From NCBI GenBank assembly GCA_964541905.1, contig CAZIRU010000001.1:141490-205489 (forward strand): a stretch of 64,000 bases of DNA. The letters are read 5' to 3'. Shown here piece after piece: positions 6,900 to 26,818 of this stretch. A model generated the notes under the pieces. The model saw only the letters and a list, made by a program, of their open reading frames with translations, did not search any database and had not been told where the DNA came from. The DNA is from an uncultured Verrucomicrobiota bacterium. Lineage in GTDB: Bacteria > Verrucomicrobiota > Verrucomicrobiia > CAZIPW01. The position numbers and the translations under genes are program-made. Positions within the stretch are counted from its first letter, which is position 1. Every line of letters begins with the position of its first letter.

Positions 6900-7004
6900 G
6901 GGTCTATTATTACAATCATACGCCCCCCTCGCAAGACTCCTGCCTCAACTTCGCGCCTTAATGCTTGACTATAGGCGCATACGGGGGTATGATAAACTTT
7001 CCTA

Positions 7005-7078
<74 letters not shown>

Positions 7079-7096
7079 CGTTTTTTGGGGCTACCT

Positions 7097-7675
7097 TTAC
7101 CAATCTTTTTTTAACGTGTCTTCGACCGCCGCCTGCTTAAGCAATTCCGACGCTGTATCGTTTTGAGGATCGTTCTCCAACGTGGCGCGAATCACCCCTT
7201 GCGCCTCCTCTATTCGGCCTTGTTTGAGATAACACTGTGCAAGCAAGACCTGCTCGTGGATAGCTTTAGGCTTGAGGGTCACCACCGATTCCAGCGAAAG
7301 CGCCGCCGTCCCCCACAACTCGCGAGCATAGGCCACTTCCGCAAAGGCCTGATGGGCCGTCACGCTATCTGGCGTTTCCACTAAAATCTGTTCCAGACGA
7401 TTCAGGTAATGCATCGGCGCGTTCACCAGGGCATAATAAATCCGCCAGCAAAAGGTTAAAAGGGCCGCCACCAAGCGCGATTGGCGATGCTCGTTAAGGA
7501 CAACCACCGTTTGCCGCAAAAGTAATCTCAGCTCTGGACAATTTGGATAGCGCCGCAGCAAACCGAATAGCAGCGACCGCGTATAGTGAAAATACCCCCC
7601 CGACATCGCCTTCTGGGATTTTTCCAGCATCAGGCGTGAGGCAGTCTCGAGCTCCGAAAGGGAAATTTCTCGCAC
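7097..7675 (-). CDS. TPR repeat protein
   Basis: 192 aa of helical repeats with TPR-like periodicity (LAQCYLKQGRIEEAQGVIRATLENDP). Confidence 0.5.
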   Translation of the reverse strand: MREISLSELETASRLMLEKSQKAMSGGYFHYTRSLLFGLLRRYPNCPELRLLLRQTVVVLNEHRQSRLVAALLTFCWRIYYALVNAPMHYLNRLEQILVETPDSVTAHQAFAEVAYARELWGTAALSLESVVTLKPKAIHEQVLLAQCYLKQGRIEEAQGVIRATLENDPQNDTASELLKQAAVEDTLKKDW

Positions 7676-7783
7676 TCTGGCTTCCTTTTTATAGCAAAAA
7701 ATTTTCCTGGCAAGCTAAATATGCCTTTTTATTAAAAAGAATACGGGCGGATGTTGCCTTAAATTAACATTTAACGGGCACGC

Positions 7784-9769
7784 TCAACTTTTCAAGACCC
7801 GCTCGTGCGCGTTGGTTTTGAGGGCCTCGACGAGTTTCTCCAGCCGCGCCTGCGCTCTTTTTTGCACAGCCAGGGCCATCTCGTCCACCCCTAGGGGTTC
7901 CCAGACAAAGCAATAAAAACGAACGCTGGGCTGGGTTCCGCTGGGCCGAATGCAAAAACGGCCTCCATCAATGTCGCAAATGATCATAGCCTCCGGCGGG
8001 ACCGTCTCTCCATCTGCATCCAGTATTTTTTCGTGCAGAAAATCGCGCACAGATCTGATCGCGCATTCACCTACGCTCTTCGGTGGGGACTTAATATAGG
8101 AGTCCACCAATTTTTTAAGTTTTGCCGCCCCATCAGCGCCTTCAAACGACACTTCCACCATTTTATCCTGATGGACGCCGTATTTGCGATAGAGCTCCTC
8201 TATGCCATCGGTGATCATTTTGCCTCGGCTAGCTAGGCGTGCCAACATTTCCGCAAACATCAGCACGGCGGCGTTAGCGTCCTTGTCCCTTACGCAATCA
8301 TAACCTAAATATCCATAGCTTTCTTCGCCTCCAAAGACGAAATATTTGCTATACTTCAGCAAAAGCTCACGGCGTTTTTCAAAAGACGTTCGATCATAAT
8401 CCAAGCCCACCCCATCTTTTGCCAACACGGCTTTCAGGCGCTCTTCATACATTCGTACCCGCCCGCATATCCATTTAAAACCGGTCAATGTGTTGATACA
8501 AGCAAGCCCATGCCGCTGGGCTATTTGGTCTTGCATGGGGGTCGTAACAAAAGTCTTTATAAAAACTGCGTTAGGGTGTCCCTCAGCTGGAAGTTGCCCA
8601 AGCTCTTTCATTTTACAAAGACGATCCTCCGCGATAAGGGAACCGATTAAATTTCCATTCAGGATCTTCCAGCCACCATCCGGCAACCGAACTGCCGCTC
8701 CCATGCGGTCACAATCCGGATCAGTAGCCAGCACTGCCTCTGCGCCGGCAACTTCCGCCTTTTTCATTGCAAGCTCAAGTGTCTCGGCATGCTGGGGATT
8801 GGGATATTTGACCGTCGGAAAGCGGCCATCAAAATTATTCTGCTCCTCTACCAGCAAAACCCCTGTTCCATATTTTTCGAAAGCGCGCGGCACCATGACC
8901 CCTCCGGTTCCATGCACGGGGCTGTAAACCATCTTCGGGGGATATTTCTTCAAGATCTCCGGCTCTAGGAGCGTCTCGCCCAGCGCAGTTAGATACGCTT
9001 CGTCAACGCTTGGGGGTAGAATTATTACTCTTGAAAGGTCCCTTTCCAGCAGCGCGAAGGTTTCGTTAAGGCTGATTTTTTCGACCTCTTCAATAATCTT
9101 TCTCTCAGGTTCACCAGAGATGAGCGCCCCATCGCCAAAATAGACTTTATAACCATTGTCGTGCGAAGGGTTGTGGCTGGCGGTGATGGCGACGCCAGCA
9201 GTGGCCCCCGCATATCGGGTTGTGAAGCTTAATTGCGGCACAGAACGCGGTCCTTCAAAAAGAAGCGCCACCCCTCCCAGCCTGACCCAGCAAGAAGCCG
9301 TCAACTCCGCGAAGCGCCTGGAAAAATGGCGGACATCGTGGGCAATGACAAGCTTTGGCGGTGTGAAGGTATGAGAGGTTTGAGCCAAATAATCCTTGCA
9401 ATAACGGAAAAGCCCCATTGTCGCGCGCAAGACGTTAAAGTCGTTCATCATCGCCGAGCCTAAAGCGGCATGCTCGGGCACTCCCCACGAATCAACACGC
9501 GCCTTTTCCGCTTCGGTGGAGGTTATCGCTATGGTTCGGCCGCGTATTCCCGAGGTCCCAAACCTGTTGCGCTTGTAAAACCTATTATTAAATTCGTCGG
9601 CCATCTCTGGGCGCGACAGCTCTTCCAAACTGGCATACACCCAAGAAGGAAAGCCTTCTGTCTCGATATAAGGCCTTGCGTTTTCAAAACTTTCCGGAAG
9701 GATTTTCCCCTGATCCTTTAAGGCGGTCAATCGTTGCAATATTTGCGCTGGGTTTATTTTCTCGGGCAT
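7784..9769 (-). CDS. alpha-D-phosphohexomutase (phosphoglucomutase/phosphomannomutase family)
   Basis: Active-site serine motif TASHNPSHDNGYK, plus the metal-binding DPDCDR and sugar-binding GGEESYG motifs. Confidence 0.85.
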   Translation of the reverse strand: MPEKINPAQILQRLTALKDQGKILPESFENARPYIETEGFPSWVYASLEELSRPEMADEFNNRFYKRNRFGTSGIRGRTIAITSTEAEKARVDSWGVPEHAALGSAMMNDFNVLRATMGLFRYCKDYLAQTSHTFTPPKLVIAHDVRHFSRRFAELTASCWVRLGGVALLFEGPRSVPQLSFTTRYAGATAGVAITASHNPSHDNGYKVYFGDGALISGEPERKIIEEVEKISLNETFALLERDLSRVIILPPSVDEAYLTALGETLLEPEILKKYPPKMVYSPVHGTGGVMVPRAFEKYGTGVLLVEEQNNFDGRFPTVKYPNPQHAETLELAMKKAEVAGAEAVLATDPDCDRMGAAVRLPDGGWKILNGNLIGSLIAEDRLCKMKELGQLPAEGHPNAVFIKTFVTTPMQDQIAQRHGLACINTLTGFKWICGRVRMYEERLKAVLAKDGVGLDYDRTSFEKRRELLLKYSKYFVFGGEESYGYLGYDCVRDKDANAAVLMFAEMLARLASRGKMITDGIEELYRKYGVHQDKMVEVSFEGADGAAKLKKLVDSYIKSPPKSVGECAIRSVRDFLHEKILDADGETVPPEAMIICDIDGGRFCIRPSGTQPSVRFYCFVWEPLGVDEMALAVQKRAQARLEKLVEALKTNAHERVLKS

Positions 9770-9838
9770 AAAAGTCTCCTAAAGCCCTACGGCTCTTTTT
9801 GTCGAAGCTTTTCGAAAAAGAGTAGGAATGAAAACCGC

Positions 9839-11269
9839 TCAAACGAGCACAAGGCCTTCCGTAACCTTTTCGGGCACACGACCTTCGGCGTGGCGAACTT
9901 TAAACTCTTCTAGGGTCTCGGCAAAGAGCGGTGAGATTTCAAAATTCACCAATGGAACACCGTTCGCATCGCAGGGAATCTCAACTCCCACGCTTTTGAA
10001 CCAAAATGCCCACAGCTTAAGCTGGTCCTCGCGGCACGAGACGGCTGAGTCCACGCCTTCCGCGTTTTTAATAGGGCTAAACTCCTCACGCGTGGTTGGT
10101 GTCACCATGCTATTTTCAGCCATAGGAATCGCATCGAAAATAAATTGTTCGAACTTTGTCGCATTCGGCTCAGCCGGCGAGACAATCTTTTCGCCATCCC
10201 AAAAGGGGACTTTTTTATAGGCGCGATGATAGGGAAGGGCGGCCGTCTTGGCGATTTGCCGGATAAAGCTCACATCAATCGCGTGGATGGCGATACTGCC
10301 CTGATTAAAACGCAACTCCCCCTCGCTTGTGCGTTCATTCGCCAGCGCCTCGGGCATATCCACATACTCAATGACACTCACTCTGCCGTCTCTTCTCACA
10401 AAATTGCCGACCTTTTCCATCGGCCCACGCTTGGGAAGGCTCTTGGAGCTAAATTGGCTGCGTAAAATCTTATGAGCCCCTAAAAAGACCGGGTCAAGAA
10501 TACGCACAAGGGGGTTATCCACTTGCCAATAGCTTAAAGTAGCCACGCTGCGCCGCTGCAGCCAGTCCAGCGCTCCCGAATTTTGGAGCCCCTTGATGGC
10601 GCCACCATGTCCATCGGGATTTAGAGCAAGGCTTGTGGGCGAAGCCAAAAGCATCTCGTGCGTTTTTGTATCTACCGCAGGCATGGTCCCCTGCTCAAAA
10701 AAGAAAATTTGCTCCTCTTTGAGGCCAAAAAACTTTTTCTCCCAAAAGTATTCGACTGTTTGATTATTATTTTGCGGGCTTGTCATGATGATCCAGGGGA
10801 TCGTCGCGCCCGAACGACACTGCGCCGTGAGGATTTTCTCCGCAAAAACCTGAAAAAGAGATGCGCGCCGCACGGGGGTGGTCGGAAAGCAGCCCTTTGG
10901 ACCCTCGAACCCCAACCGAGACCCTTGACCGCCCGCGACCACAAAAAGCGCCACTTGCCCGGAAGCAATCATATCTTCGCCTATTTCACGGGCTGTCTTT
11001 TGGTCAAACGCCGCCAGCTCCACCGGCTGCAACTTGTCTGTTTTCACCTTTTCCGCGGAGGGTTTTTCCTTCAAGAGCCTCTTAAGCGCTTCAAAATCAA
11101 CGCTTTCAAGCTCAGCAAAAAGATCGGCTTGTTGTGGCGTCGCCAGGGACTTGAAGTGCGCAATGAGCTTCTTTTGCCCCAGTTTTTCAAGTACGGCAAC
11201 AACTTTATCGCGCGAAATGGAGAATTTGTTCGTTGGGATAGGCATAACCAATTTTTTCTCGGATGACAT
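9839..11269 (-). CDS. UDP-sugar pyrophosphorylase, UDPGP family (UAP1 / UDP-GlcNAc pyrophosphorylase-like, eukaryote-type)
   Basis: Motifs VAGGQGSRLG, MTSPQNN..T..YF and NPDGHGG typical of the UDPGP family. Start moved to the ATG at 11269 (MSSEKK) to limit overlap with the upstream ftsB-like gene. Confidence 0.7.
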   Translation of the reverse strand: MSSEKKLVMPIPTNKFSISRDKVVAVLEKLGQKKLIAHFKSLATPQQADLFAELESVDFEALKRLLKEKPSAEKVKTDKLQPVELAAFDQKTAREIGEDMIASGQVALFVVAGGQGSRLGFEGPKGCFPTTPVRRASLFQVFAEKILTAQCRSGATIPWIIMTSPQNNNQTVEYFWEKKFFGLKEEQIFFFEQGTMPAVDTKTHEMLLASPTSLALNPDGHGGAIKGLQNSGALDWLQRRSVATLSYWQVDNPLVRILDPVFLGAHKILRSQFSSKSLPKRGPMEKVGNFVRRDGRVSVIEYVDMPEALANERTSEGELRFNQGSIAIHAIDVSFIRQIAKTAALPYHRAYKKVPFWDGEKIVSPAEPNATKFEQFIFDAIPMAENSMVTPTTREEFSPIKNAEGVDSAVSCREDQLKLWAFWFKSVGVEIPCDANGVPLVNFEISPLFAETLEEFKVRHAEGRVPEKVTEGLVLV

Positions 11270-11489
11270 GTTTCTGAAATTCCTTGTTGTTTTGCAGCGC
11301 CGCCAGAGTGGTCTTTTGCGCAGTAATATCTTCACGAAGCTCCAGCAAACGAGCTTGTGCGACCCTTTCGCGATCTGAAAAATGGCCATACTCGCGGAAA
11401 CTCTGCAAACCAAAATAAATCGAAAAGACAGTTGCGCCAATTAAAAGCGCTCCCAAAAACCCCAAGAAAAATTTTCCACTAAGCGTCAC
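11205..11489 (-). CDS. septum formation initiator FtsB/DivIC-like
   Basis: 94 aa with a single N-terminal TM (FFLGFLGALLIGATVFSIYF) then coiled coil. The C-terminal EKIGYAYPNEQILHF resembles the FtsB tail. Confidence 0.5.
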   Translation of the reverse strand: MTLSGKFFLGFLGALLIGATVFSIYFGLQSFREYGHFSDRERVAQARLLELREDITAQKTTLAALQNNKEFQKHVIREKIGYAYPNEQILHFAR

Positions 11490-11558
11490 GCCTTCTATTC
11501 AGAAGTAAAATTTATTTTTTGCAAGACAGAAGCAAAAAATTTTGAGAATTTTTACGAA

Positions 11559-12191
11559 CTACCCCCAGACAACCGCCACTTCTGAAGCTCCAACAAAAGC
11601 CGCCGCTTCTGTTTCCGCAGCCAAGATCTCCATAGCGTCGGCCCAACGCGCATCCATGGTTTCGGCCGGCAATCCGTCAAGAACGAGCCTCAAAGAATTT
11701 TGTGCGCCCGTCACAAAGATTGCCGAAGCTGCGCCCGATTTTACAAACCATCCCAGCAAAACCGAAAAAAGGCGCCAAAGCGATGGATCGGTGGCTTTGA
11801 TTTCAAAGGCAACACACTTCTCCTTCTCGAAACGAAAGCGCTGATCATAAGGGAGCATCAAATCCATTAGATCTTTGTTCCCAGCCAAAAACTCGACAAC
11901 ATTGCGATGTGTACACTCTCCACCTTGAGCCATAAGGGTACGAATACGCCTTTGAAGCTGGGCTGACTTGCTACTGGCGTGGATGATCAAATCCAAATGA
12001 GGATCCAAAACATCTTGTTGGGCCCCCTTGAGGGTCTCGGCTAAGGTGCCAATCCCAGCCAAAGCATTATTAACCTCGTGGATAAAGCCACGATAAAGCG
12101 ACACTTGCGCCTCAAGGATTTGCTTTTCCAAAAAAAGCGCAGCTTCTTGAGTTTTTAAAGAACTCAAGCGTTGAGGCAATTCCGCGTCCAT
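11559..12191 (-). CDS. histidine-kinase-like protein (DHp H-box present, ATPase domain degenerate)
   Basis: An H-box FIHEVNNALAGI is preceded by a coiled coil. No clear N/G1/G2 ATP-binding boxes were found in the remaining ~100 aa. Confidence 0.45.
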   Translation of the reverse strand: MDAELPQRLSSLKTQEAALFLEKQILEAQVSLYRGFIHEVNNALAGIGTLAETLKGAQQDVLDPHLDLIIHASSKSAQLQRRIRTLMAQGGECTHRNVVEFLAGNKDLMDLMLPYDQRFRFEKEKCVAFEIKATDPSLWRLFSVLLGWFVKSGAASAIFVTGAQNSLRLVLDGLPAETMDARWADAMEILAAETEAAAFVGASEVAVVWG

Positions 12192-12508
12192 TATTCAGCT
12201 GACTTGCCTTCTAGAAGCGCCAATTCTTTCTTACTCACACGGCCAGCGCGATTATTCGGCACAAAAGTACCTTCAGCGCGATACTGACGGATTTTATTGC
12301 GAAGAGTGCGCAGGCTGACGCCCAAGATTTGGGCAGCGTGAGTACGATTACCGCGAGCAATTCGCAGTGTTTGCAAAATATGCTCTTTTTCGACGGTCGC
12401 CAGCGTGGGGACTTCCTGGCGGTTCATGGGCTTCCAGACAATCTTGGCATTGTCTATGACGATAGAGGGGACAGTGTCGGGGTTGTTCGAAGTAACAGGG
12501 TTTTTCAT
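12191..12508 (-). CDS. stand-alone Fis-family HTH DNA-binding protein (NtrC C-terminal-like)
   Basis: The C-terminal HILQTLRIARGNRTHAAQILGVSLRTLRNKIRQY is a Fis-type HTH_8 motif. Its stop/start overlaps the upstream HK-like gene by 1 nt. Confidence 0.6.
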   Translation of the reverse strand: MKNPVTSNNPDTVPSIVIDNAKIVWKPMNRQEVPTLATVEKEHILQTLRIARGNRTHAAQILGVSLRTLRNKIRQYRAEGTFVPNNRAGRVSKKELALLEGKSAE

Positions 12509-12918
12509 ATAATGTTTATTTTACTAGGGTTGTTATTTTTTGTCAAGAATTAGGGTAATCCTTTATGGAAATTTACAAATGTCAATACCAAAACAAAGTT
12601 TTTTTTACAAAAGGCCATTAATTCCGTATTTTACAACTTTTTTAAATTTTTATACTAAACACTCGTGCAAATTCTACCGATAAGAAGGCGTCGGATGAGA
12701 AAAAGCCCTCCAGTTCTCTCACAAAGAGTCCCCGCAGGGATCAGGCGGCGCATGCGCGGGCGCAGTACCGCTCGAAAAACACGCACACAAGTGGTCGCGC
12801 GCGGCAGAAAACTTATCAAGACGCCCGGCTATCCTCCGCGCCACATAGTTTTACAATTGGCAAAATCTTTTGCCGCCCAAATTCTATCAGAAAGAAACTA
12901 AGGGAGCCGCATCTGGGC

Positions 12919-13656
12919 CTACGGCATTTCGCGGCGATACTTCGCCAATAGCGGAAATAGCCGCAATGCCTCAATATAGCGCCGCCCGGGATGCACTCGC
13001 ATCTGCCGTCTTTGTGCCCGCGGGGTAAAAAAACTCCGGAAAAACCAGCCCAAGAACAAGCTATCTGCCCAATCAGGCACTTGTGTTTGCGCACCTGTTA
13101 AAAGATCTATCGCTCCTCCTGTGCAAAGAATAAGGGGGTGGAATGCTAGATTTTGCTTCAGATATTGTCCCACTGGTTCCTGCGTGCCTCCCCCTAGGTT
13201 AATAACAATAGCCTGCGGTTGGTGCTGTTTGGCCATACTTAAAAGGGCCTCATCGCGGATAGGCTGTGCCTCGGGGTACATTGGCGCGCAATAGTGTGAA
13301 GAAAGTGCTGCCGGAAATTTTTGATCTATCTCTAAAAATAGAGCGTTGCGCTTTTGTGCGGCAGGGGAGGGGTGTACCCATAAAATTCGGTTATTTTTAG
13401 GTCCGCGCAAAAAATCCTTCAAAAAACGCAGTCCGGAAATTCGTTTCAAGCGCTCGCCGCTTAGTAAAAACCAGCTTAAGGTTAAGAATCCGCTATCTAC
13501 AAACCGCACATCCGCCGCCAAAAGAGCCTCACGGTACCGCGCATCACGGTCTAGTGTCGCCAGGCTTGGTCCTGCTGGAAACACACATAACCCGCGCGCC
13601 CTTAAGACCGCCTCTTTGGGGTCTCCGTCATAAAACTCAAGCCCCAGAATGCGCAT
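12919..13656 (-). CDS. WecB/TagA/CpsF family glycosyltransferase (GT26)
   Basis: Family motifs INLGGGTQE and ILCTGGAIDLLTG; 245 aa, typical family size. Confidence 0.7.
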   Translation of the reverse strand: MRILGLEFYDGDPKEAVLRARGLCVFPAGPSLATLDRDARYREALLAADVRFVDSGFLTLSWFLLSGERLKRISGLRFLKDFLRGPKNNRILWVHPSPAAQKRNALFLEIDQKFPAALSSHYCAPMYPEAQPIRDEALLSMAKQHQPQAIVINLGGGTQEPVGQYLKQNLAFHPLILCTGGAIDLLTGAQTQVPDWADSLFLGWFFRSFFTPRAQRRQMRVHPGRRYIEALRLFPLLAKYRREMP

Positions 13657-13671
13657 AAATAATTATATTTA

Positions 13672-13744
<73 letters not shown>

Positions 13745-13802
13745 GAAAAAGCCATTTTCTCAAAAAACTCCTTTCGAGTCAATCTTGAAGCATTTCTAGT
13801 CT

Positions 13803-16553
13803 TTAAAACTCTAAACTCTGCGCATACATAGTCGCGTATAAATACACGCTCACCGCCTTGCCGCTCAACTTCTCAAAGGCCGCCTTGTATGCCAACATTT
13901 GCGGTTTGTAAATTTCAGCAATCTGCTCAAGGGGCATTTGGTCCGTTTTCCAATCCACCACACAAACGCCCTCTGGCGTTTCCAAAAGCAAATCCACGCG
14001 GCCCTCCAATACCATCCCGTCAATTTTTGCAAAGAAAGGCACTTCCGTTGAAGCGTTGCCGGAAGCGATTTTTTGCCAAAGTGAATGTTTTTTTAAAGCC
14101 TCAAGCTCCGCTTTCAGGCGCGGATATTTGAACCGCTCCACCTTTTTAACAAACTCGATTCCACGCGCCCATAAGCCATGCCACGCGTCCCCATATTCAA
14201 GACCACCCTCTTCTTTTCCCTTTCCTCGGATCGCCTCTTCATCCACAAAACTGGTTGGAGAGCGCACCGGACAATCTTGCGGTGTTTGCCATTCCACGGG
14301 GGCGCGCGCTTCTGCTTGCTCACAAACTTCTCCCCAATCAAAACCAGGGGGCCCCAACTGCTTAAAAGCTTCTTCAAAGCAACCTCCCGCTGCAATGCCA
14401 AGCCGCGCTGCTGCAGAATTGGTGGCTGTTTTGTAATACTTCGCATCATCCACCAAAATCAGCGCTTCTTTTGCGCGCGTTTGCGCCACGTACAAAAGAC
14501 GGTTCAGGTTTCCATCTTCCGTTTTTTCATCGTCTTGCCACAAAAGCTTTTTACTTGAAAGGTCCGGGTAGGGGTATTTTTCACGTCCATCATTGTTGGG
14601 CCTGTGCAAAAAAGGAAGCACAACAATGGGCCACTCCAAACCCTTGGCTTTGTGAATGCTCATCAGCTGAATGGCACCTCTCTCAACAGCAAGCTCTGCG
14701 CGCTCTGTCTCCATTTTTTCCAAAAGCTCCGCGGCCGTGTGGCATTGTGTGGCTAGACTAAAAATCCACATTTTTGTCTGACGCCATTCTTGAGCAAAGC
14801 CAGCTCCATACACTCCACCGAGAGCCAGCATCTTTTCATCCAGATTTATCGCCGCTATAATTTTTTTGAGCGCCTCAATGAGCGAATCCTTTCGCCCCCC
14901 AGCCCAACTTGCGCGCAAGGCCAACATCTCTTCCCTTAACGCCACGGGCATATCCTCCGGCAGTGGCGCACTTTCCATAAGCGACAAAACTTGTGGTGTA
15001 TTTTTAGTCACCCGCGAAAGCTCAAGGTCTGAACAAGCCGAAATTTCGCGCAGAAGCCCTACTAGCTCAAAACTATCAAAGGGCCTCCATAGAAGATATA
15101 TGAGGGATTGAAGGGTTTTATAAGCTGCCGACTTGGGTCCGGCAGGCGCGTGAATTTGCACGCGCAAACCTTCCTCTATGAGCGTTATTCGTAGCTTGTG
15201 CAGCCATCTTTTTTGTAATGCCAGGACTGCAATCTCGTGCGCGCGGCCCTCAGGAATTTTGAGCGCCATAATTTTTTTGGCCACCTCTCGTGCCACCGCC
15301 CAATCACTTTTTTCAACCTCAGGAATTTCGCTAAAACTCGGCGCCGGCAGCTTCCAGCGAAACACTCCTCCCTCCGAAGCATCTTCTCGCGCTTCCAGCT
15401 GTACATACTCCGCTTGAGCCGCTCCACCTTGCAACAACGCAGGGCCCACTTTATTCACCCAATCCACCACCTCTCGCGAACAACGGAAGGTTTGCTCCAG
15501 TGTCAACGCCTCAACCCCCTCGTCTCTTTGAAGCTCTTGGTGCATTTTCAAGTAATATGCGATTGAGGCGCGTTCAGGGAAAATCGTCTGTTGAGGATCT
15601 CCGACCATTGTAAGTTGTATTTTCCGCTCTTTCCGAGCGGCCAGCGCACGCAGTATTTCCATTTGTTTAGGGCTGGTATCCTGCGCCTCATCCAAGACAA
15701 TATTCCAAGTCCCCGCTTCGCTATATTCCCTTATTTTTTCAAACGTCACTGCAATAAGGTCCTCAAAAAAATAAATACCCTTTTCGCGCCGCCAACGCGC
15801 AAACCTCCAGGCAATATGCTGCGCATACAACATGCCTTGCTGGCCCTTCCATTTTTCATAAGGCTCAAAAAACTCCCTAAAAAACGGATAGGCCTTCGAT
15901 GTTTTTTCTGGATACTTCGGCAGCTCTGGCATCACCCACTGCGAATCCTCGACTGTTTTTTTGAGCGCTTCCGCATAAACCCGCAAGCGCTCTATAGGCT
16001 TTTTTGCAGGGCCGCTTATTTGGCACTCCTTAATTTTGTGAAAGGGGAAGGGGGGAGCTTGTGTAAATTCGTTTTCAGCAATTTTTCGCGCATCAACCAA
16101 CTCCAACAACCCTTCTCTAAACATTTCAAAATGCCGCCAAAAGCGTTTTTGAATTTCTGTTGAAAAATCATCCAGCGGATTGGGTTCTTCCGCTTCAAAA
16201 CTTGCGTAGACTTTTTTTAAATTCGTCGCTAATTGGATATTTTGCGGCAACGCCCATTTTTTAGCGTTTTTTTTGATTAACTCATGGCAAAAAGAATGAA
16301 TCGTCCCGATAAAAAGCCCCTGCGCCGGCAATGATTTTTTATCCGAACGCAAGCGCGCCTCCAACCGCTCGCGCATTTCTTGCGCGGCTTTTTTAGTGTA
16401 GGTGACGAGCGCTAAAGGTGTTTTTCCCGCCTGCAACATAGCCCTCACGCGGCCTATGATAGCTCGCGTTTTGCCGGCTCCCGCGGGCGCAATGACGCTA
16501 AAGGGTTGCTCTATCTCGCCTTCAAAACGCGCGCGCACCTCTCTATCAGACAT
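13803..16553 (-). CDS. addA: UvrD/REP-type helicase with C-terminal PD-(D/E)xK nuclease domain (AddA/RecB-like)
   Basis: Walker A APAGAGKTRAII, UvrD-like helicase motifs (TYTKKAA, VLDEAQDTSP), and a C-terminal VDLLLETPEGVCVVDWKTD nuclease motif. 916 aa. Confidence 0.75.
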   Translation of the reverse strand: MSDREVRARFEGEIEQPFSVIAPAGAGKTRAIIGRVRAMLQAGKTPLALVTYTKKAAQEMRERLEARLRSDKKSLPAQGLFIGTIHSFCHELIKKNAKKWALPQNIQLATNLKKVYASFEAEEPNPLDDFSTEIQKRFWRHFEMFREGLLELVDARKIAENEFTQAPPFPFHKIKECQISGPAKKPIERLRVYAEALKKTVEDSQWVMPELPKYPEKTSKAYPFFREFFEPYEKWKGQQGMLYAQHIAWRFARWRREKGIYFFEDLIAVTFEKIREYSEAGTWNIVLDEAQDTSPKQMEILRALAARKERKIQLTMVGDPQQTIFPERASIAYYLKMHQELQRDEGVEALTLEQTFRCSREVVDWVNKVGPALLQGGAAQAEYVQLEAREDASEGGVFRWKLPAPSFSEIPEVEKSDWAVAREVAKKIMALKIPEGRAHEIAVLALQKRWLHKLRITLIEEGLRVQIHAPAGPKSAAYKTLQSLIYLLWRPFDSFELVGLLREISACSDLELSRVTKNTPQVLSLMESAPLPEDMPVALREEMLALRASWAGGRKDSLIEALKKIIAAINLDEKMLALGGVYGAGFAQEWRQTKMWIFSLATQCHTAAELLEKMETERAELAVERGAIQLMSIHKAKGLEWPIVVLPFLHRPNNDGREKYPYPDLSSKKLLWQDDEKTEDGNLNRLLYVAQTRAKEALILVDDAKYYKTATNSAAARLGIAAGGCFEEAFKQLGPPGFDWGEVCEQAEARAPVEWQTPQDCPVRSPTSFVDEEAIRGKGKEEGGLEYGDAWHGLWARGIEFVKKVERFKYPRLKAELEALKKHSLWQKIASGNASTEVPFFAKIDGMVLEGRVDLLLETPEGVCVVDWKTDQMPLEQIAEIYKPQMLAYKAAFEKLSGKAVSVYLYATMYAQSLEF

Positions 16554-18711
16554 GGCGCCTCCTTTCCATTAAAACAGGATCCACAGCCCAAGCCGCTTGG
16601 GGTAATATTCCCGCTTTAGCGTAAGGCGAGAAAACTCCACCCTGTTGCCCCAAGACACCGCTTTGGGCTTTTTGGGCCATCTCTTTTTCGCACTCAAAAA
16701 CTTCTTCTTCGCTGACTATTCTTTGTATCGAAAAGCCGGTCTTTTTCGAAAAACGACACAAGCCCCACCTGCCACCCAACAGCCTTGCGTACAAAAGCAG
16801 CTGCAACCCATCCGCTTCTTTAAAATCGCTGATTTTTTTGGAACTTCCGGTTTTGAAATCCACTACTACGCGCTCCCCGTTCACCTCCACAAGCTGATCC
16901 GCCACGCCCACAAGATCAACACCCAACCAAACTCCTCTGAGTTTTTTCTCAATCTCCAAAACACGCACGCCCGAGAGAGCTTTCTGAAAATCCAACGCCA
17001 AGCGTTTTGCTTGTGCGCGCGCGCAAAGCCATCTCAATGCATCCGATGAATTATCTTCTTCAAAAGCGGATTTTCTTTTTGGGGTTGAGGCCCACACCGC
17101 CAGCGCCTCGTGAACCCACTCGCCTATGATCATTTTTTCACTCCAGTCTTTTGGTAAAAGCCCAATAAGTTTATACCAGCACACCTCCGGTTGTGTGAAA
17201 ATTTCCTCCCATGTTTTCGCGCTCGCGCGCAATGGAGGCTCTAGCGCATAATCATTTGGCCCAAAAGGATTTGCTGCATTATTGCGGGTGGCGTGTTTTT
17301 TTTGTAATTCCTCCGCAAAGCTTTTTTGCGCCTTGTATATTCTTTTTTGAACACTGGGAAGCTCAACTGAATTCGCAAGTTTCGCCCATGAACAATTTTC
17401 TTTTGCCAACTCCTCCATTGCAAAGAGTTCCTCGGCATTGTCCGTTCGCGCCCACATACGCGGGTCTTTTTGTTCGAGATTCCACCGCGCCAATTCAGCC
17501 GCAAGCTTTTCTATTTTAACCTCCGGCGCACTTCTTCTACTCCAAAGCACCAATGTCTCATTATCAAAAAGACCTTGCGCGCGCTCAAAAGGCACAACGC
17601 TTATTTCTTCGTACGCGGCCGTTTCCTTCTCATCCATTTGTTCCAACCCCTCCAAATACCACTCGCGCGAAACCTCCTTGGGGAGCATTTTTTTTATTAG
17701 AGATAGCCTTTTAGTAAAAGATTGTGTGCGTTCGGGGAAAAACCCCGCGCAAGCTGCCGTAAATTCCTCTATTGAACCTTTTGGAGGCAGACAAAAAGCA
17801 GGCTCTATGGCCACGAAGGCGCCATCCTTTTTCCACTGTTGTTTGCGGTTTATCCGCAACTGCTCTAGCGCTTCTTTTTCTTCAAATTTGTTTGCGATGG
17901 CACTTTTCATCCATTCTTCATAGAAAGCTTTTTCCTCTAGTGTTTTTCTACAATCCGCCAAAAATGCCCGCTCCCACCAGCCTTGTGTTTCATTTTTAAA
18001 AAGCGCTGCCACTATTCCTAGGGCTTCGTCGCCAGAATAAACCACTCTGGAGAATCTTCTTTTCACTAAACATTCTTTTGTGGCCTCCAAGAGATCTCCC
18101 GCGGTGTCGGTTTCTATTAGGATTTGTTCTATGGCGCCGTTCATCTCGCACACCTCTTGTTCGTATGCAAATTTTTTTTCCCACGTTTCTATCGCGCGCG
18201 CTTGGGCCGCTGAGGGTATCTGCCCCGTCAAAAAACCAATCCCCAGCGATGGATATATACCCATAATTCGCGGATCAAACCCCACCGCAACATCTACCCG
18301 CAGCTCCACTTGCCAGGCTGCCCGAAGCCCCAGCTGGCGCATCGCTGAAAAAACATTTTCCGAAAGCTCTCTAAGGATGTTTTCTTTAAAGAAATCTTCC
18401 GGCACACCCCCGGCAACACCAATTTCCATCAGCGCCTCAGCCCACTCATCAACCCCAACCCAATCATCCTCCCAAGCTCGGCCTATCATTTTTAACTCCC
18501 AAAGCCCCAAACTTCCCTCACGGCGCTCCAACTCACCCCGCGTAATAATATCCCACCCCCAAAACCCTCCTATTTCCTCTAAAATATATTTTTTTATTGT
18601 CTTTTTTTGCTCCGGGGTGGCCACAAGCAACACTCCGTTTTGCTTTTTTTTTAAAAGCGCTTTTAGCCAATTTTCCCAATGTTCTTTTATATTTCGCCCC
18701 AGCCAAATCAT
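16546..18711 (-). CDS. addB: AddB-like PD-(D/E)xK nuclease partner subunit
   Basis: 721 aa with a C-terminal ERVVVDFKTGSSKK nuclease motif. It overlaps the addA-like start by 8 nt, giving the addB-addA order seen in AddAB operons. Confidence 0.6.
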   Translation of the reverse strand: MIWLGRNIKEHWENWLKALLKKKQNGVLLVATPEQKKTIKKYILEEIGGFWGWDIITRGELERREGSLGLWELKMIGRAWEDDWVGVDEWAEALMEIGVAGGVPEDFFKENILRELSENVFSAMRQLGLRAAWQVELRVDVAVGFDPRIMGIYPSLGIGFLTGQIPSAAQARAIETWEKKFAYEQEVCEMNGAIEQILIETDTAGDLLEATKECLVKRRFSRVVYSGDEALGIVAALFKNETQGWWERAFLADCRKTLEEKAFYEEWMKSAIANKFEEKEALEQLRINRKQQWKKDGAFVAIEPAFCLPPKGSIEEFTAACAGFFPERTQSFTKRLSLIKKMLPKEVSREWYLEGLEQMDEKETAAYEEISVVPFERAQGLFDNETLVLWSRRSAPEVKIEKLAAELARWNLEQKDPRMWARTDNAEELFAMEELAKENCSWAKLANSVELPSVQKRIYKAQKSFAEELQKKHATRNNAANPFGPNDYALEPPLRASAKTWEEIFTQPEVCWYKLIGLLPKDWSEKMIIGEWVHEALAVWASTPKRKSAFEEDNSSDALRWLCARAQAKRLALDFQKALSGVRVLEIEKKLRGVWLGVDLVGVADQLVEVNGERVVVDFKTGSSKKISDFKEADGLQLLLYARLLGGRWGLCRFSKKTGFSIQRIVSEEEVFECEKEMAQKAQSGVLGQQGGVFSPYAKAGILPQAAWAVDPVLMERRRHV

Positions 18712-18791: not shown

Positions 18792-19136
18792 GTGTATCAG
18801 GTTTTTTTTAATGAAAAAAGCGCGTTGGTTTTTAAAGGTTTCTCTCAACAACGCCAGTTGGAGATTATCAATGCACTCAATACAATTACTCCAGATTCTT
18901 TAGCGCGCCCAGAAGAACCTTTTGGGTGTTTTAAACGAGCAGATACTATCTATTATCGCTACCGTTTTGAAGATTTGCGTTTTTATTTCACACTCAAAGG
19001 GGACCTTATTCACTGCGTCTATATTCTTCAAAAAAACACCTGGGGGGATTTTTGTTTACGCAGTAATTTAGAAAAAGTTTCTGATATTGAAGTTGAGTCC
19101 AAACCTCATTTTTGGGAATTTTTAGAAAACAACTGA
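18792..19136 (+). CDS. small protein with RelE/ParE-toxin-like sequence pattern (tentative)
   Basis: 114 aa. The region YYRYRFEDLRFYFTLKGDLIHCVYILQKN matches the RelE/ParE beta-strand pattern (yRi.vgdyRiiY.i.d..i.ilri). The ORF lies in an AT-rich tract and no antitoxin partner is visible. Confidence 0.3.
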   Translation: MYQVFFNEKSALVFKGFSQQRQLEIINALNTITPDSLARPEEPFGCFKRADTIYYRYRFEDLRFYFTLKGDLIHCVYILQKNTWGDFCLRSNLEKVSDIEVESKPHFWEFLENN

Positions 19137-19603
19137 TTTTAAATTTTTTTGAGGATGTGGATGGAGCCCCACAGGGTGTATTGCAAAAAACCACGGGTTT
19201 AATCATAGAGCTCTATTAACACCTAAAAGTGTGGTTTTCTGTGGAAGTGAGAAAGGCTTATTAAAGCCTTTTTTAATATTAACTGTTTTATAAAGTTACT
19301 TGTTTATAACTTTGTAAATATATTTATATCAAATATTTAATAATGTAATAAAATAAACAACTTGCGAATATTTAGATGAATAAATTTTTTCTCCCCACTT
19401 ATCTACACTACTTCCCTTATCATGTTTTTTATTTCACCCTTTAAATATTACATACTCCCTTTATTATAAACATATTATAAACTTTTTCACAATTTCACAA
19501 CCTATAAGATGATGAAGATTATAAATATAAATACTCTTCTTATACAAACACTCTCATTTACTTTTTTATTGTCACGCCACCCGTAACGCCTTTAACTAAT
19601 CTT
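19137..19603. promoter_or_regulatory. candidate chromosomal replication origin (oriC) with AT-rich unwinding region, immediately upstream of dnaN
   Basis: About 460 bp with no ORFs and very high AT content in a GC-rich genome. DnaA-box-like 9-mers are present: TGTGGATGG at 19156 and TTATCTACA at 19389, plus TGTGGTTTT/TGTGGAAGT. There is an imperfect palindrome TTTATAAAGTTAC..GTTTATAACTTTGTAAA. Nearly all genes to the left (1768-18711) are on the minus strand. Confidence 0.5.
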
Positions 19604-20731
19604 ATGAAAATCAAAATCCATCGTGATCATTTTATCAATGGACTTAATCAGGTCTTAAATGTTGTTGGAACAAGAGCGACTATGCCTATTTTAAGTAACG
19701 TCCATATTGAAGCTCGTCCAGATGGTATTCGTTTAACAACTACAAATCTCGACTTAGGAATGCGCTGTTCGATTAAAGCTGAAGTTATAGAACCAGGAGC
19801 TATCACCCTTCCTGTTAGAAGACTTGCTAGTATTGTAAAAGAACTACCCTCTTTAGATGTGCGGCTAGAAAGTACACAAAAATATCAAACAACACTTGTT
19901 TCAGGCAGCTCACGCTTTAAAATCATGGGACTTTCTCCCGAAGAATACCCTCCTTTGCCAACATTCAACGAAGAACACTCTATTACCCTCTCTCAAAATG
20001 ATTTACAAAGACTTTTAAAACTCGTCTCCTACGCAGCCTCAACCGACGAGAGCCGCTATCAAATGAATAGTGTTTTTTTTGATTTTACCCCTGGAAAATT
20101 AACCCTTGTGGCTACGGACGGCCGCCGCCTGGCGCTTGCTTCACACGACGTAGCAGTAAGTGAAAAAAATGTTGGCAAATTAATACTCCCGCTTAAAACC
20201 GTTGCAGAGGTGGAGCGCGCCCTAGGTCAAGGCGATAACGTAAAACTCACCTTCAACAATCGCCAAATTGCCTTTTCCTTTGAAAATAAAAACTCAGAGA
20301 TGGGCTTTATCGACCAAATCCATCTCGTCTCAAAACTGATTGAAGGAAAATATCCAGACTACAACCAAGTTCTCCCCAAAGAGACCTACAATCGCATTAA
20401 ACTTGATCACAACCTCTTTACTGAGAGCGTAAAGCGTGTTTCCTTGGTCACAACTGAAAAAAACAATTCGATCAAAGTTATTATTTCTCCTAAAAATATC
20501 GAAATTAGCGGTTCATCCCCCGACTTTGGCGAGGCGCAAGAGTCTATTGGCGGTGTCGCATACGAAGGTCCGGATGTCAGTGTTGCCTTCAACCCGCAAT
20601 ATATTCTCGAACCAATGCGGGCGATTACCGAAGACGAGGTGTTTTTAGAGTTTAAGGACGAGGTGAGCCCGGGTGTTTTCAAAACACTCAATAAATTCAC
20701 CTGTGTGGTAATGCCCTTACGTCTATCATAG
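19604..20731 (+). CDS. dnaN: DNA polymerase III beta subunit (sliding clamp)
   Basis: 375 aa with the DnaN-typical N-terminus MKIKIHRDHFINGLNQVLNVVGTRATMPILSNVHIEA and a three-domain length. Confidence 0.9.
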   Translation: MKIKIHRDHFINGLNQVLNVVGTRATMPILSNVHIEARPDGIRLTTTNLDLGMRCSIKAEVIEPGAITLPVRRLASIVKELPSLDVRLESTQKYQTTLVSGSSRFKIMGLSPEEYPPLPTFNEEHSITLSQNDLQRLLKLVSYAASTDESRYQMNSVFFDFTPGKLTLVATDGRRLALASHDVAVSEKNVGKLILPLKTVAEVERALGQGDNVKLTFNNRQIAFSFENKNSEMGFIDQIHLVSKLIEGKYPDYNQVLPKETYNRIKLDHNLFTESVKRVSLVTTEKNNSIKVIISPKNIEISGSSPDFGEAQESIGGVAYEGPDVSVAFNPQYILEPMRAITEDEVFLEFKDEVSPGVFKTLNKFTCVVMPLRLS

Positions 20732-20770
20732 ATAGGTGTAAAAATTTACAGGAACCTTACAACATCGCGC

Positions 20771-21535
20771 CTAGTCGTGCTTTCGTAAAAATTTCGAAAG
20801 CGTCACTTCTCCCGATCTTAGGCTCACAACTTCTTTTCCCGTCTTTACACACAGCGCTCCATCAGCATCTATTCCCAAAACCTTTCCACGCCTAACCCCT
20901 TCTTTATTTTCAAAACAAATATTTTTTCCCGTTAATCCATCATAACACAGCCAAAGCTCAATCATCTCCTCTAAATATATTCCCGCGCAAAAGCGCTCAA
21001 AACTCTCCGCCAAAGACGAACACAAAAGGCTTCGCAATCGCTCCAAATCGAAGGTCTTATGCGCCTCGAGTCTCAGTGAAGTTGCGCGCAGTCCTGCGGG
21101 AAACTTTATCGAATTTACATTTAGACCCACGCCTAAAATCAAAACCCGTCCAACCCCACTCACAACCGGCGCTTCTGCCAAAAGCCCCGCGCATTTCTTT
21201 TGCCCCACCCACAAATCATTGGGCCACTTGAGCCACACCCGCACCCGAGTCTTTTTTGCGATCGCCTCCGCAAGCCTAAGCCCCGCATAAAGCGTGAAAG
21301 TTGGCAGTTCTTTTAGCGGTACCTCCGCCTTGAACGCGGCTGTACAATACAAATTTCCCTCGGGCGAGTGCCATTGCCGGCCCATGCGCCCCCTGCCGGC
21401 GGTTTGATTTTTTGCACTCACAAAAATCGGCGGGGTCTCCTCCGTCAAAAGCCGCAAAGCCTCATCATTGGTGCTGCCGAGCGTGTCGTACTCAAAACAA
21501 GTTACTTTGCCCGAAGGTTGTATTTTAGAAGCCAT
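20771..21535 (-). CDS. birA: biotin--[acetyl-CoA-carboxylase] ligase (group I, no DNA-binding domain)
   Basis: Signature QTAGRGRMGRQWHSPEGNLY. Start set at the ATG at 21535 (MASKIQPSGK). Confidence 0.75.
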   Translation of the reverse strand: MASKIQPSGKVTCFEYDTLGSTNDEALRLLTEETPPIFVSAKNQTAGRGRMGRQWHSPEGNLYCTAAFKAEVPLKELPTFTLYAGLRLAEAIAKKTRVRVWLKWPNDLWVGQKKCAGLLAEAPVVSGVGRVLILGVGLNVNSIKFPAGLRATSLRLEAHKTFDLERLRSLLCSSLAESFERFCAGIYLEEMIELWLCYDGLTGKNICFENKEGVRRGKVLGIDADGALCVKTGKEVVSLRSGEVTLSKFLRKHD

Positions 21536-21554
21536 TCCGCTATTATAAAAACCG

Positions 21555-22739
21555 ATGGAGAATCTTTTTGCAATGGTGATCGTGGGCGTTTTAGCGCTGA
21601 TTTTGGGTGGCGTTCTCGGCCACATATATTCTCAAAAACATGCAACACCTCCGCCCTCCGACGATCTCTTGCGCGAGCGCTTCAAGGCGGCCGCCTCCGA
21701 GGCTATGCAAGTCTCTCAAGCGGGTTTTCTAGCTCAAGCCAAGCTCGTGGTCGAGAACGCGCGCGAGGTGGCTACGAGTGAATTTCAAAAGCAGGGGCTT
21801 ACGCTGCAAAAAAATCTCGAACCGCTCCGCGCCTCTCTCGAAAAACTCGAAAGCAATATCTCCTCCTTGGAAAGGGCCCGCGTGGGCGCTTACGCCGGCC
21901 TCACCCAGCAGCTCGAAAATCTTTCTTTGGCGCAAAAAGATCTTCGCTTGGAGACTTCCGCCCTTGTTCAAGCCTTGCGCGATCCAAAGACGCGAGGCAG
22001 TTGGGGCGAGTTGCAACTCAAACGAGCAGTGGAGTTCGCCGGCATGTCGGCCTATGTGGATTTTCAAACCCAGGTGAGTGTCTCCAATTCCGACGAGCGT
22101 TCTCTGCAGCCCGACATGGTCATCCGTTTGCCGGCGGGACGCCATGTGGTGGTGGACGCCAAAACGCCCATGCGCGCGTATCTCGAGGCGCTTAACGCCA
22201 CCACTCCCGACGAAAAAAAGCGTCTCTTTTGCGATCACGCCCGCCAGTTGCGCGACCACTTCAAAAAGCTCGGCCAAAAACAATACTGGGCGCAGTTTTC
22301 CCCCTCTCCCGAGTTTGTTGTTCTCTTTTTGCCACAAGAGAGTCTGCTTTCGGCGGCGCTTGAGTTTGAGCCGCAGCTGATCGAGGACGCCGTGCGCGAG
22401 CACGTGATTATCGCCACCCCCACCACTCTTATCGCGCTTCTCAAGACGGTCGCTTATGGCTGGGGGGAGTTTCAGGCGGCCGAGCGCGCCCGTCACGTCG
22501 TCTCTTTGGGCAACGAACTTATCGACCGCTTCTCAACCGTTTTGGGCTATTGGAAGGGCGTGGGCGTCGAGCTCAAACAGGCCGTCGAAAAATACAATCA
22601 AGCGGTAGCCTCGACCGAAGCGCGCCTGATGCCGACGGCACGCGCGTTGGCGGGCGAGAAAAAGCTCGAAGAGCCGGAAGGCGTCCAAGTTTTGCCTCGC
22701 GAGATGGCTGTTGCCGAAACTCAAACGCGAGAGGATTAG
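21555..22739 (+). CDS. rmuC: DNA recombination protein RmuC
   Basis: N-terminal TM, long coiled coil, then the RmuC nuclease-like core (GSWGELQLKRAVEFAGM, VVVDAKTP). Confidence 0.8.
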   Translation: MENLFAMVIVGVLALILGGVLGHIYSQKHATPPPSDDLLRERFKAAASEAMQVSQAGFLAQAKLVVENAREVATSEFQKQGLTLQKNLEPLRASLEKLESNISSLERARVGAYAGLTQQLENLSLAQKDLRLETSALVQALRDPKTRGSWGELQLKRAVEFAGMSAYVDFQTQVSVSNSDERSLQPDMVIRLPAGRHVVVDAKTPMRAYLEALNATTPDEKKRLFCDHARQLRDHFKKLGQKQYWAQFSPSPEFVVLFLPQESLLSAALEFEPQLIEDAVREHVIIATPTTLIALLKTVAYGWGEFQAAERARHVVSLGNELIDRFSTVLGYWKGVGVELKQAVEKYNQAVASTEARLMPTARALAGEKKLEEPEGVQVLPREMAVAETQTRED

Positions 22740-23359
22740 CGCTTAAATTTACTAAACCCCAGCCCGCTTAAATCCTCTTCCGTGTAGATCGCAAAAACCT
22801 CACGCTCGCGTCCGTTCTCAAAGATTCTGTAATATCTGAAGTCCGCCCGCGAAAAGTCCTCCAAGCTCCAGCTGGAAACTTTCGCCTCATACGGATTTTC
22901 ACCAAGTGCCTCCGCTGGAGCTTTTTCGTCAAGCGCCTGCCAGATGCCCAGCAACATCCCTGTTTTCTCGCGCATCTTTTTTATCATCTGCAGCCCCTTT
23001 TGTTTTTCAAAAGAAGCCAAAAGGTCAAAACACCACACAAAGTCATAAGAATGCAGCTCGTCAATGAGCGTATAGGCGTTGCCGACGAAAATTCGTTTAT
23101 ACATCGCGCGCTGATAATCTTGCACCAGCGGCGCATAAATTTCGATTCCGTCAATCTGGCTTTTCCACTGGCGCGTGAGCGCGCGACCCTCCCAAATATC
23201 CGTGTACTCGCGGAAGAGAAAGCCCCACTTTCCGCTACCGACACCCAAATCCAAAAAGCTCTCCGGCTTGAATTTCAAAACCAGCTCACGGGTAATTTCC
23301 GTTGCCCTAAACGCTTGCGACATACCGCTATTTTGCAGCAGCTCAAACTGATAAGTCAA
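22736..23359 (-). CDS. class I SAM-dependent methyltransferase-like protein
   Basis: Motif I-like LDLGVGSGKWGF; 207 aa. Confidence 0.4.
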   Translation of the reverse strand: MTYQFELLQNSGMSQAFRATEITRELVLKFKPESFLDLGVGSGKWGFLFREYTDIWEGRALTRQWKSQIDGIEIYAPLVQDYQRAMYKRIFVGNAYTLIDELHSYDFVWCFDLLASFEKQKGLQMIKKMREKTGMLLGIWQALDEKAPAEALGENPYEAKVSSWSLEDFSRADFRYYRIFENGREREVFAIYTEEDLSGLGFSKFKR

Positions 23360-23392
23360 TTCACTCTCCGCTCTTGGGCAAAAAAGCGCGCC

Positions 23393-26427: not shown

Positions 26428-26431
26428 TCGT

Positions 26432-26520
26432 GTCTAAGAGTATAGAAATTTTTCGCACAGGGCGAGAGAGTTTCTCATAGGTTTTTAAGGCCGCTCGAGT
26501 TTTCTCGGGCGGCTTTTTTG
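26432..26520 (+). ncRNA. candidate small RNA / terminated leader element, copy 1
   Basis: A ~90-nt segment ending in the hairpin GCCGCTCGAGTTTTCTCGGGCGGC plus TTTTTTG. It is paralogous to the element at 26698-26784, sharing GTCTAAGA..GAATTT..AGGGC..GAGTTTCTCATAGGTTTT. Confidence 0.35.
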
Positions 26521-26697
26521 TCCGCCTCCGCAGAAGACCACGCCTTTCGGCGTTGAATAAGGCAAGAGGGCTTCTGACTACGGCGAGATGTTGCGCCTTG
26601 AGTGCGTAGCACGAAGGACCGCGGGCTTGCCCGTGGGGGCTCCATTGGAAAGGTGATTTTTTTGAATATTACTCTGAACCTTTTGCAAAATTTCTCC

Positions 26698-26784
26698 GTC
26701 TAAGACTGCGTAAGAATTTCAAAAAGGGCTCAAGGAGTTCTTCATAGGTTTTGAACCGTCCGGTTTGCGCCGGACGGTTTTTTG
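26698..26784 (+). ncRNA. candidate small RNA / terminated leader element, copy 2
   Basis: Paralog of copy 1. It ends in the perfect intrinsic terminator CCGTCCGG-TTTGCG-CCGGACGG followed by TTTTTTG (26756-26784). Confidence 0.4.
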
Positions 26785-26818
26785 TTGGGGTGGTCGAAAA
26801 ATTCCATTACGATAGGGC

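Follow-up and report, generated by a model that had tools for sequence, protein, structure and literature searches.

The 467-bp spacer at 19137-19603, which separates a small open reading frame (ORF) from dnaN in the 64-kb stretch of DNA analysed here (the window), probably holds the chromosomal replication origin of its host, which is an Opitutales (Verrucomicrobiota) bacterium. The candidate for the origin proper is the AT-rich body of the spacer at 19276-19560, which would act as the origin or at least as its module of DnaA boxes and unwinding sequence, with dnaA residing elsewhere. An oriC upstream of dnaN with dnaA at another place had been proposed in the initial annotation, and this proposal is upheld, mostly on grounds other than those given there. 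What is shown directly is how AT-rich the spacer is, which motifs it has and how far these are conserved, that the element is unique, where the skew switches and that dnaA is absent from the vicinity.

A conserved core element 5' of dnaN

The spacer has a G+C content (GC) of 27.4% as opposed to 51.8% across the window, and the lowest-GC 200-bp stretch of the entire window begins within it at 19271 (20% GC). It does not contain an ATG-initiated ORF of at least 30 amino acids (aa), and the dnaN gene that follows is complete (19604-20731, + strand), encoding a beta sliding clamp of 375 aa with all three Pfam domains (E 1e-24 to 1e-32). The ORF-free, AT-rich stretch of about 460 bp that had been described 5' of dnaN is thereby confirmed, and so are its AT-rich imperfect palindromes, for instance 19272-19298 / 19307-19333 with a complementarity of 74%. 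In the body of the spacer (19276-19560) the GC is 21.1%, and this is the part to which a role in duplex unwinding may be assigned.

For comparison, dnaN loci were gathered from 10 further lineages with a DnaN identity of 53-84% (loci are designated by L and a number). The closest DnaN proteins, 78-84% identical, are those of uncultured Verrucomicrobiota and Opitutales; a second tier of 53-59% identity comprises Cerasicoccus (L015 is Cerasicoccus fimbriatus) and many Opitutales metagenome-assembled genomes (MAGs). L013 is the same organism as the window, present as an identical 12.9-kb contig in the public run SRR8925805; it was reached through a 349-aa version of DnaN, the 375-aa form having no record. 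A profile hidden Markov model (HMM) delimited a core element of ~105 bp at 19452-19556 on the + strand (nhmmer E 2.5e-12 in the window). In relatives it was matched with E 1e-11 to 1e-18, with one match per locus, always 5' of dnaN and on the dnaN strand. No match was obtained elsewhere in the 64-kb window or in the fetched loci, and none in L012, L003 and L009. Nine lineages keep a long AT-rich spacer with the core despite a differing upstream gene, which can be glgB, uvrB, a CDP-alcohol phosphatidyltransferase gene or the small ORF.

The core of the window is composed, in this order, of two TTATAAAC repeats, tandem forward boxes, a 3-nt spacer, a trinucleotide array and AT-rich DNA. Window and relatives share a plan in which a forward DnaA box is followed, after a 3-nt spacer, by 4-10 NAN triplets and then by a TTTTATATAAAT-like tract, and a TTTTATATATAAAT-like AT tract is located 3' of the triplet array in 8 of the 9 lineages. 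L012, with a DnaN identity of 80%, serves as a negative control: the spacer is reduced to 108 bp (L012:9893-10000), the element is gone and the skew does not switch at dnaN. This arrangement implies that dnaN is separable from the origin element. In L012 dnaN is situated behind a divergent Laminin_G_3 gene and the skew of the locus is uniformly positive. A flagellar cluster is present after dnaN in L010, L016 and L017; in L012 it is found upstream and in reversed order.

Predicted DnaA boxes in the spacer

The spacer was scanned with TTATCCACA, the E. coli consensus of the DnaA box, and with the relaxed form TTWTNCACA. Seven sites with at most two mismatches to TTATCCACA were found, which makes the spacer the densest 500 bp of the window, whereas local dinucleotide shuffles yielded 2.2 +/- 1.4 such sites and reached seven in 0.3% of cases. 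Several of the seven are near-matches made up of A and T only. The strict scan, in itself not decisive, returned a single site with at most one mismatch (TTATCTACA at 19399). The enrichment of DnaA boxes over background that had been suggested as a check on the origin is modest. With TTWTNCACA one exact match was obtained, and five sites with at most one mismatch, three of which lack the CAC core.

Three forward boxes have a conserved position in relatives. Predicted box A (TTATCTACA, 19399-19407, + strand) has one mismatch to TTATCCACA and lies ~205 bp before dnaN. A forward box occupies the equivalent place, 205-222 bp 5' of the dnaN start codon, in L001 (TTGTCCACA), L002 (TTATTCACA) and both L004 and L005 (TTTTTCACA). 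Closer to dnaN, at 19483-19499 (+ strand), a tandem of forward boxes is predicted, comprising B1 (TTTTTCACA, from 19483), which is the exact match to TTWTNCACA, and B2 ((A)ATTTCACA, from 19492). The proximal box is kept in 8 of the 9 lineages as TTATTCACA, TTTTTCACA, CTATTCACA, ATATTCACA, TCATCCACA or TTATTCACC, and the local type of box is TT(A/T)TTCACA. The tandem is preceded by two weak box-like repeats, TTATAAAC(A/T), at 19464-19483 (+ strand, starting at 19464 and 19475); their motif TTATAAAC is conserved in L004, L005, L006 and L001.

The four DnaA-box-like 9-mers listed in the initial annotation are all present (TGTGGATGG at 19156, TGTGGTTTT at 19230, TGTGGAAGT at 19240 and TTATCTACA at 19399), but the first three are located in a hairpin-forming part of the spacer that is not conserved. 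This left part (19137-19275, + strand, 36.7% GC) aligned with no relative in the alignment of relatives. It folds into hairpins, with an inverted repeat at 19184-19201 / 19224-19241 and pairing of AAAACCAC with GTGGTTTT. Besides, a terminator-like stem followed by a T-run was seen by eye in the sequence at ~19253-19275, a stem that the scan did not report. Rather than to the origin, the left part probably belongs to the small ORF, as its 3' flank.

A trinucleotide array follows the proximal box

Behind the tandem boxes and an ACC spacer (19500-19502) a trinucleotide array was found at 19503-19534 on the + strand (TA TAA GAT GAT GAA GAT TAT AAA TAT AAA TAC). From 19505 onwards it comprises 10 consecutive NAN triplets, is purine-rich and shares its strand with the forward boxes; in single-stranded form this purine-rich strand reads 5'-TATAAGATGATGAAGATTATAAAT-3'. 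The distance between the proximal box and the triplet run is 3-5 nt in all nine lineages, which is inside the published limit of 0-16 nt. The number and the order of the AAG/ATG units vary among the relatives, which argues for selection on the repeat and not on a fixed word.

In Helicobacter the DnaA-trios are located opposite the forward box, on the complementary strand. The same holds for B. subtilis and E. coli, and the canonical rule asks for at least three NAN triplets (consensus 3'-GAT-5') on that strand (PMC8287927). Rules for the unwinding system were adopted from this study, the canonical polarity being derived from the entries for B. subtilis and E. coli in its Tables S1 and S2. At the conserved site the run of 4-10 NAN triplets was on the forward-box strand in 9 of 9 lineages, whereas the canonical strand had at most two triplets in 7 of 9 and hence fell short of a canonical trio. 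A run of at least four triplets has a chance of ~0.3 per sequence, and the nine lineages, being related, are not independent trials. A pattern of canonical polarity after box A was seen in the window, in L001 and weakly in L004, but lacks conservation. L005 and L016 have weak reverse boxes on the right-hand side of the array, as may be expected by chance in AT-rich DNA. A canonical basal unwinding system was rejected, as the search with the published rules found only non-conserved patterns.

The motifs could be read as a strand-swapped DnaA-trio system, in which the 5'-GAW-3' repeats and the forward reading of the box are found on one strand, but this we think unlikely. Binding of the array in single-stranded form would mean either that DnaA is loaded on the opposite strand, or with opposite polarity, relative to every origin studied so far, or that the array is recognized by another origin protein. 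A strand-swapped array, if real, would provide a test of how box orientation sets the strand that is captured by DnaA.

Tiny upstream ORFs starting from ATG in the array, a reading made by eye, were rejected since neither their lengths (5-25 codons) nor their sequences are conserved. In the window an array-internal ATG opens an ORF of 25 codons (19509-19586); in most relatives it has 5-8 codons. Such short ORFs are probably a by-product of the ATG/AAG repeats.

dnaA is not linked to dnaN

Pfam scans of 40 ORFs of the window, including the long ones of DnaA size, detected no DnaA domain, and tblastn with E. coli DnaA gave no match in the window. This agrees with the earlier remark that dnaA is absent from the surroundings. 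By tblastn and in the gene tables of the loci, dnaA was not found within the flanks of dnaN, of up to ~10 kb, in 10 Opitutales/Verrucomicrobiota relatives either. As a control, the same DnaA query matched dnaA directly 5' of dnaN in a deltaproteobacterial locus with E 1e-116. Since published Opitutaceae genomes have dnaA (PMC5698493, PMC8636102), the gene is presumably elsewhere in the genome and not missing.

The GC skew switches near dnaN

The skew was computed on local stretches, from which a global minimum is not derivable. In the window the skew passes from negative to positive, which is the polarity of an origin. Also in L014, L015 and L002/L008 the skew changes sign at dnaN, over all positions as well as at third codon positions (GC3 skew), being negative in the genes upstream and positive in those downstream, whatever their coding strand. 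Minima were found inside or at the end of dnaN in L010 (2345), L014 (10596, with dnaN starting at 10001) and L015 (11250). That the minimum falls inside dnaN and not upstream of it is explained by the GC3 skew of the dnaN coding strand, which is intrinsically negative and has values between -0.01 and -0.24 in nearly all relatives.

The raw cumulative G-C minimum of the window was located at 24,764, 5.2 kb to the right of the spacer, and a step model favoured 24.75 kb over 19.4 kb by ~60 log-likelihood units. Gene by gene, the GC3 skew on the + strand was left-arm-like in dnaN (-0.37), birA (-0.40) and a 207-aa ORF (-0.27), and turned positive only from rsmE onwards. In L001/L007 and L005 the order of genes is dnaN(+), 207-aa ORF(+), rmuC(-), birA(+), and in L006 dnaN(+) is followed by the 207-aa ORF(+), after which the contig ends. 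The window, with dnaN(+), birA(-), rmuC(+), 207-aa ORF(-), differs from this order by a clean inversion. Judged by the gene order of L001, L005 and L006, the inverted block extends over ~2.6 kb (20751-23376). The inversion appears to be lineage-specific and to lie within one replication arm, so that the block would keep a flipped right-arm skew. Upon re-inversion in silico, the cumulative minimum moved from 24,764 to 20,521, inside dnaN, and the best changepoint was at 20.5 kb. The offset of 5 kb is therefore attributable to the inversion, which alone shifts the minimum by ~4 kb. The skew minimum, which the initial annotation had named as a check on the origin, thus spoke against this position within the window when taken raw, but for it after the block had been re-inverted. 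For origin calls that rely on skew only this is a caution, as a small recent inversion displaces the local minimum by several kb.

The orientation of the genes gave a partial picture. All protein genes at 2718-18711 are on the minus strand, as had been noticed before and taken to indicate a divergence point, but the genes on the right-hand side are mixed, so that the divergence is one-sided.

Alternative explanations

The spacer might be a promoter and regulatory region of dnaN, in which the DnaA boxes are operators that tie dnaN expression to the level of DnaA, and the origin would then be elsewhere, for example by dnaA. Near the dnaN ATG a plausible promoter, TTGTCA-N17-TAACTA, is indeed conserved. 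It occupies 19569-19597 (+ strand; TTGTCA, 17 nt, then TTAACT/TAACTA) in conserved alignment columns: the relatives keep a TTGTC(A/T) hexamer at the same position, followed after N17 by a TA-rich partner, in the final ~45 bp. From these columns it is probably the dnaN promoter. The number of convincing DnaA boxes in the spacer is only two to four, and dnaA is outside the window, its surroundings being hidden from view. In the verrucomicrobium Methylacidiphilum infernorum the skew-defined origin is positioned 250 nt upstream of dnaA (PMC2474590). However, a dnaN promoter needs ~45 bp, and a core that is situated 50-150 bp further 5', with an AT tract and an array, is needless for an operator. 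Because the promoter-like pair lies within the last ~45 bp, dnaN expression would be independent of the rest of the spacer. In addition, dnaN is where the sign of the skew switches in three relatives at a greater distance, and in the window after correction for the inversion, and the dnaN of L012 looks functional in a locus that lacks the element. A purely regulatory role of the spacer is on these grounds improbable.

Two other regulatory candidates were rejected. A sigma-70 promoter with TTCACA as its -35 hexamer was discarded because the distance to -10-like hexamers is not conserved. As to an RNA element or leader, no Rfam family was matched in the spacer at the gathering score and the RNA fold was not significant (z = -1.45); a relaxed Rfam threshold gave chance-level matches only (rimP leader, E 0.16).

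Placing the origin at the raw skew minimum, ~24.8-26.8 kb, with the 391-bp ruvX-rsmE spacer (26428-26818) as the candidate site, is very unlikely. It would agree with the cumulative minimum at 24,764 and with the ~60 log-likelihood units of the step model for 24.75 kb, and ruvX(-) and rsmE(+) are divergent there. Position 24.8 kb, however, falls within kdtA, which overlaps with truA, and neither AT-rich DNA nor a cluster of boxes is present near 24.8-26.8 kb. The ruvX-rsmE spacer was rejected as an origin since it has 49% GC, no site with at most two mismatches to TTATCCACA and two terminator-like hairpin modules. Moreover, the skew offset is accounted for by the inversion and the core HMM has no match at 24.8-26.8 kb. 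The two modules of this spacer (26468-26521 and 26735-26785) are similar and ~265 bp apart, with a GC-rich stretch in between; in each, GAGTT(T/C)(C/T)TCATAGGTTTT(T/G)AA precedes a GC-rich hairpin and a T-run. The modules, for which Rfam has no family, could be small RNA genes or terminators that have been duplicated.

It is least credible of all that a low-GC segment made up of the AT-rich stretch, the small ORF and dnaN was acquired horizontally and has no origin function: the GC at third codon positions (GC3) is 0.31 in the small ORF and 0.39 in dnaN, against 0.5-0.65 in most neighbouring genes, but the arrangement of small ORF, element and dnaN recurs in relatives that span the order, the element is conserved and has DnaA boxes, and this dnaN is the only clamp gene seen, with its closest relatives in the Opitutales.

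Second in AT-richness within the window is a patch at 12509-12918 (27.5% GC in the 200 bp from 12501), which is found upstream of a 105-aa Fis-family helix-turn-helix gene (12191-12508, - strand). This patch at 12.5 kb was rejected as an origin for lack of DnaA boxes with a CAC core.

None of the rivals accounts jointly for the conservation of the core, for its being unique and for the switch of the skew that distant relatives show at dnaN. Several observations nevertheless weigh against an origin in the spacer. Near-consensus boxes are few, with one site at no more than one mismatch to TTATCCACA and one exact TTWTNCACA, and experimentally defined origins often carry more of them. Boxes in front of dnaN could instead serve in transcriptional control, and the trio-like array runs on the non-canonical strand. 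The raw skew minimum is 5.2 kb off, the inversion that would explain it is deduced from three relatives, and a 64-kb view cannot establish the global skew minimum. DUF386 and kdtA (23.4-25.1 kb) have a weakly negative skew, and the GC3 skew of dnaN (-0.37) is left-arm-like and beyond the range of the relatives (-0.24 to +0.07). Finally, the genes on the right-hand side do not share the direction of a rightward fork.

Neighbouring genes

The ORF that precedes the spacer (18792-19136, + strand, 114 aa) is conserved, with orthologues near the origin element at L006:168-509, L010:575-943, L016:5578-5922, L017:5746-6114 and L014:8506-8874, which have 32-56% identity and share the motif YYRxRxxDxRFYF. 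The orthologue directly precedes the element in L006, L010, L016 and L017; in L014 one gene is in between. Its earlier designation as RelE-like received weak support. Pfam gave no match for six orthologues at E up to 5, and a profile of these six detected RelE3 only (3bpq_B, E 0.028) in a search against the PDB. A single-sequence AlphaFold2 model with a predicted local distance difference test score of 64 again had RelE3 as its top Foldseek match, which was not significant (E 0.64). From the profile and the model, the protein may adopt a RelE/ParE-like fold. The 80-bp gap upstream of the ORF is too small for an antitoxin gene and no partner is visible. It is unusual that a toxin gene should stay next to the origin element throughout an order, and the ORF would be a solitary RelE-like gene at the origin.

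Further to the left, at 13803-18711 on the - strand, are an AddA-like and an AddB-like gene, a left neighbour that the window has in common with L016 and L017. The addBA-like nature of this flank was supported by Pfam: the 916-aa protein contains UvrD-helicase (5e-37), UvrD_C and the PD-(D/E)XK nuclease domain PDDEXK_1, and the 721-aa protein is a second PD-(D/E)XK protein (PDDEXK_1, 5e-10). Elsewhere in the window, 39924-41759 (- strand) encodes a 611-aa protein with GreA/GreB domains at residues 462-597, preceded by an N-terminal extension of ~460 residues without Pfam match.

Proposed mechanism and relation to known origins

Should the spacer act as the origin, DnaA would bind to the forward boxes at 19399 and 19483-19499, and probably also to the weaker TTATAAAC repeats. 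It would then oligomerize toward the trinucleotide array and the AT-rich tract (~21% GC), where the duplex would open. Loading of the helicase would follow, and forks would leave in both directions, with the dnaN promoter being confined to the final ~40 bp. DnaA binding, unwinding and firing at this site are predictions from the DNA sequence.

The Opitutales are abundant and mostly uncultured, and we know of no origin in this order that has been studied experimentally. A literature search, which did not cover DoriC, found no published Opitutales origin. An origin that is defined by sequence would be of use for the orientation of MAGs, for peak-to-trough estimates of growth rate and for replicating vectors. 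Given that the M. infernorum origin is located by dnaA (PMC2474590), linkage to dnaN only appears, among the members of the phylum, to characterize the Opitutales lineage.

Of the features on which predictions of the Ori-Finder/DoriC type are based, the skew switch, the box-like sites and the adjacency to dnaN are found here at least qualitatively. The differences are that the cluster of boxes is weak when compared with the E. coli consensus and that the skew needs correction for the inversion. Likewise, among the usual marks of an oriC, an AT-rich region beside boxes, a skew switch (after inversion correction) and the adjacency to dnaN are present.

The initial annotation had considered the architecture non-canonical. 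This is correct insofar as dnaA is unlinked, but a precedent exists in the cyanobacteria, where a dnaN-linked oriC with a separate dnaA is near-universal (PMC4009838) and has been confirmed experimentally in Synechococcus elongatus PCC 7942 and Anabaena PCC 7120 (PMC4009838, PMC7198777). The candidate origin resembles the cyanobacterial ones in that it is positioned directly 5' of dnaN with dnaA far away, that it coincides with the shift point of the skew, and that its boxes depart from the E. coli consensus in favour of T as the third base (cyanobacteria have TTTTCCACA, the window and its relatives TTTTTCACA or TTATTCACA). It differs in phylum, in having far fewer near-consensus boxes, in being known from sequence alone and in the small conserved ORF on its other side. 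A perfect TTTTCCACA box is absent from the spacer, the sole copy of the window being at 60038 on the minus strand. The dnaN-linked arrangement of the origin would thus not be confined to the cyanobacteria.

A close likeness in the order of parts is offered by the incC/oriC2 basal unwinding system of B. subtilis, which is also located directly 5' of dnaN and has the same order and spacing of parts. In B. subtilis the module, which has been defined by experiment, reads TTATCCACA-AATCCACA-GGCC-CTACTATTACTTCTACTA-TTTTTTATA (complement of the row in Table S1, PMC8287927). Its boxes 6 and 7 are abutting forward boxes of 9 and 8 nt, followed by a spacer of 3-4 nt, trinucleotides, TTTTTATAAAT-like DNA and dnaN, as in the window, and even the letters read from left to right are alike (GATGATAATGAAGATGAT in B. 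subtilis and TAAGATGATGAAGATTAT in the window). Two differences are evident. In B. subtilis the NAN triplets and the forward box are on complementary strands, whereas in the window they share one strand, and dnaA is the upstream neighbour in B. subtilis but not in the window. The spacer may accordingly be seen as the counterpart of the Bacillus dnaA-dnaN intergenic half-origin (incC/oriC2), which would have been kept with dnaN after dnaA had split off.

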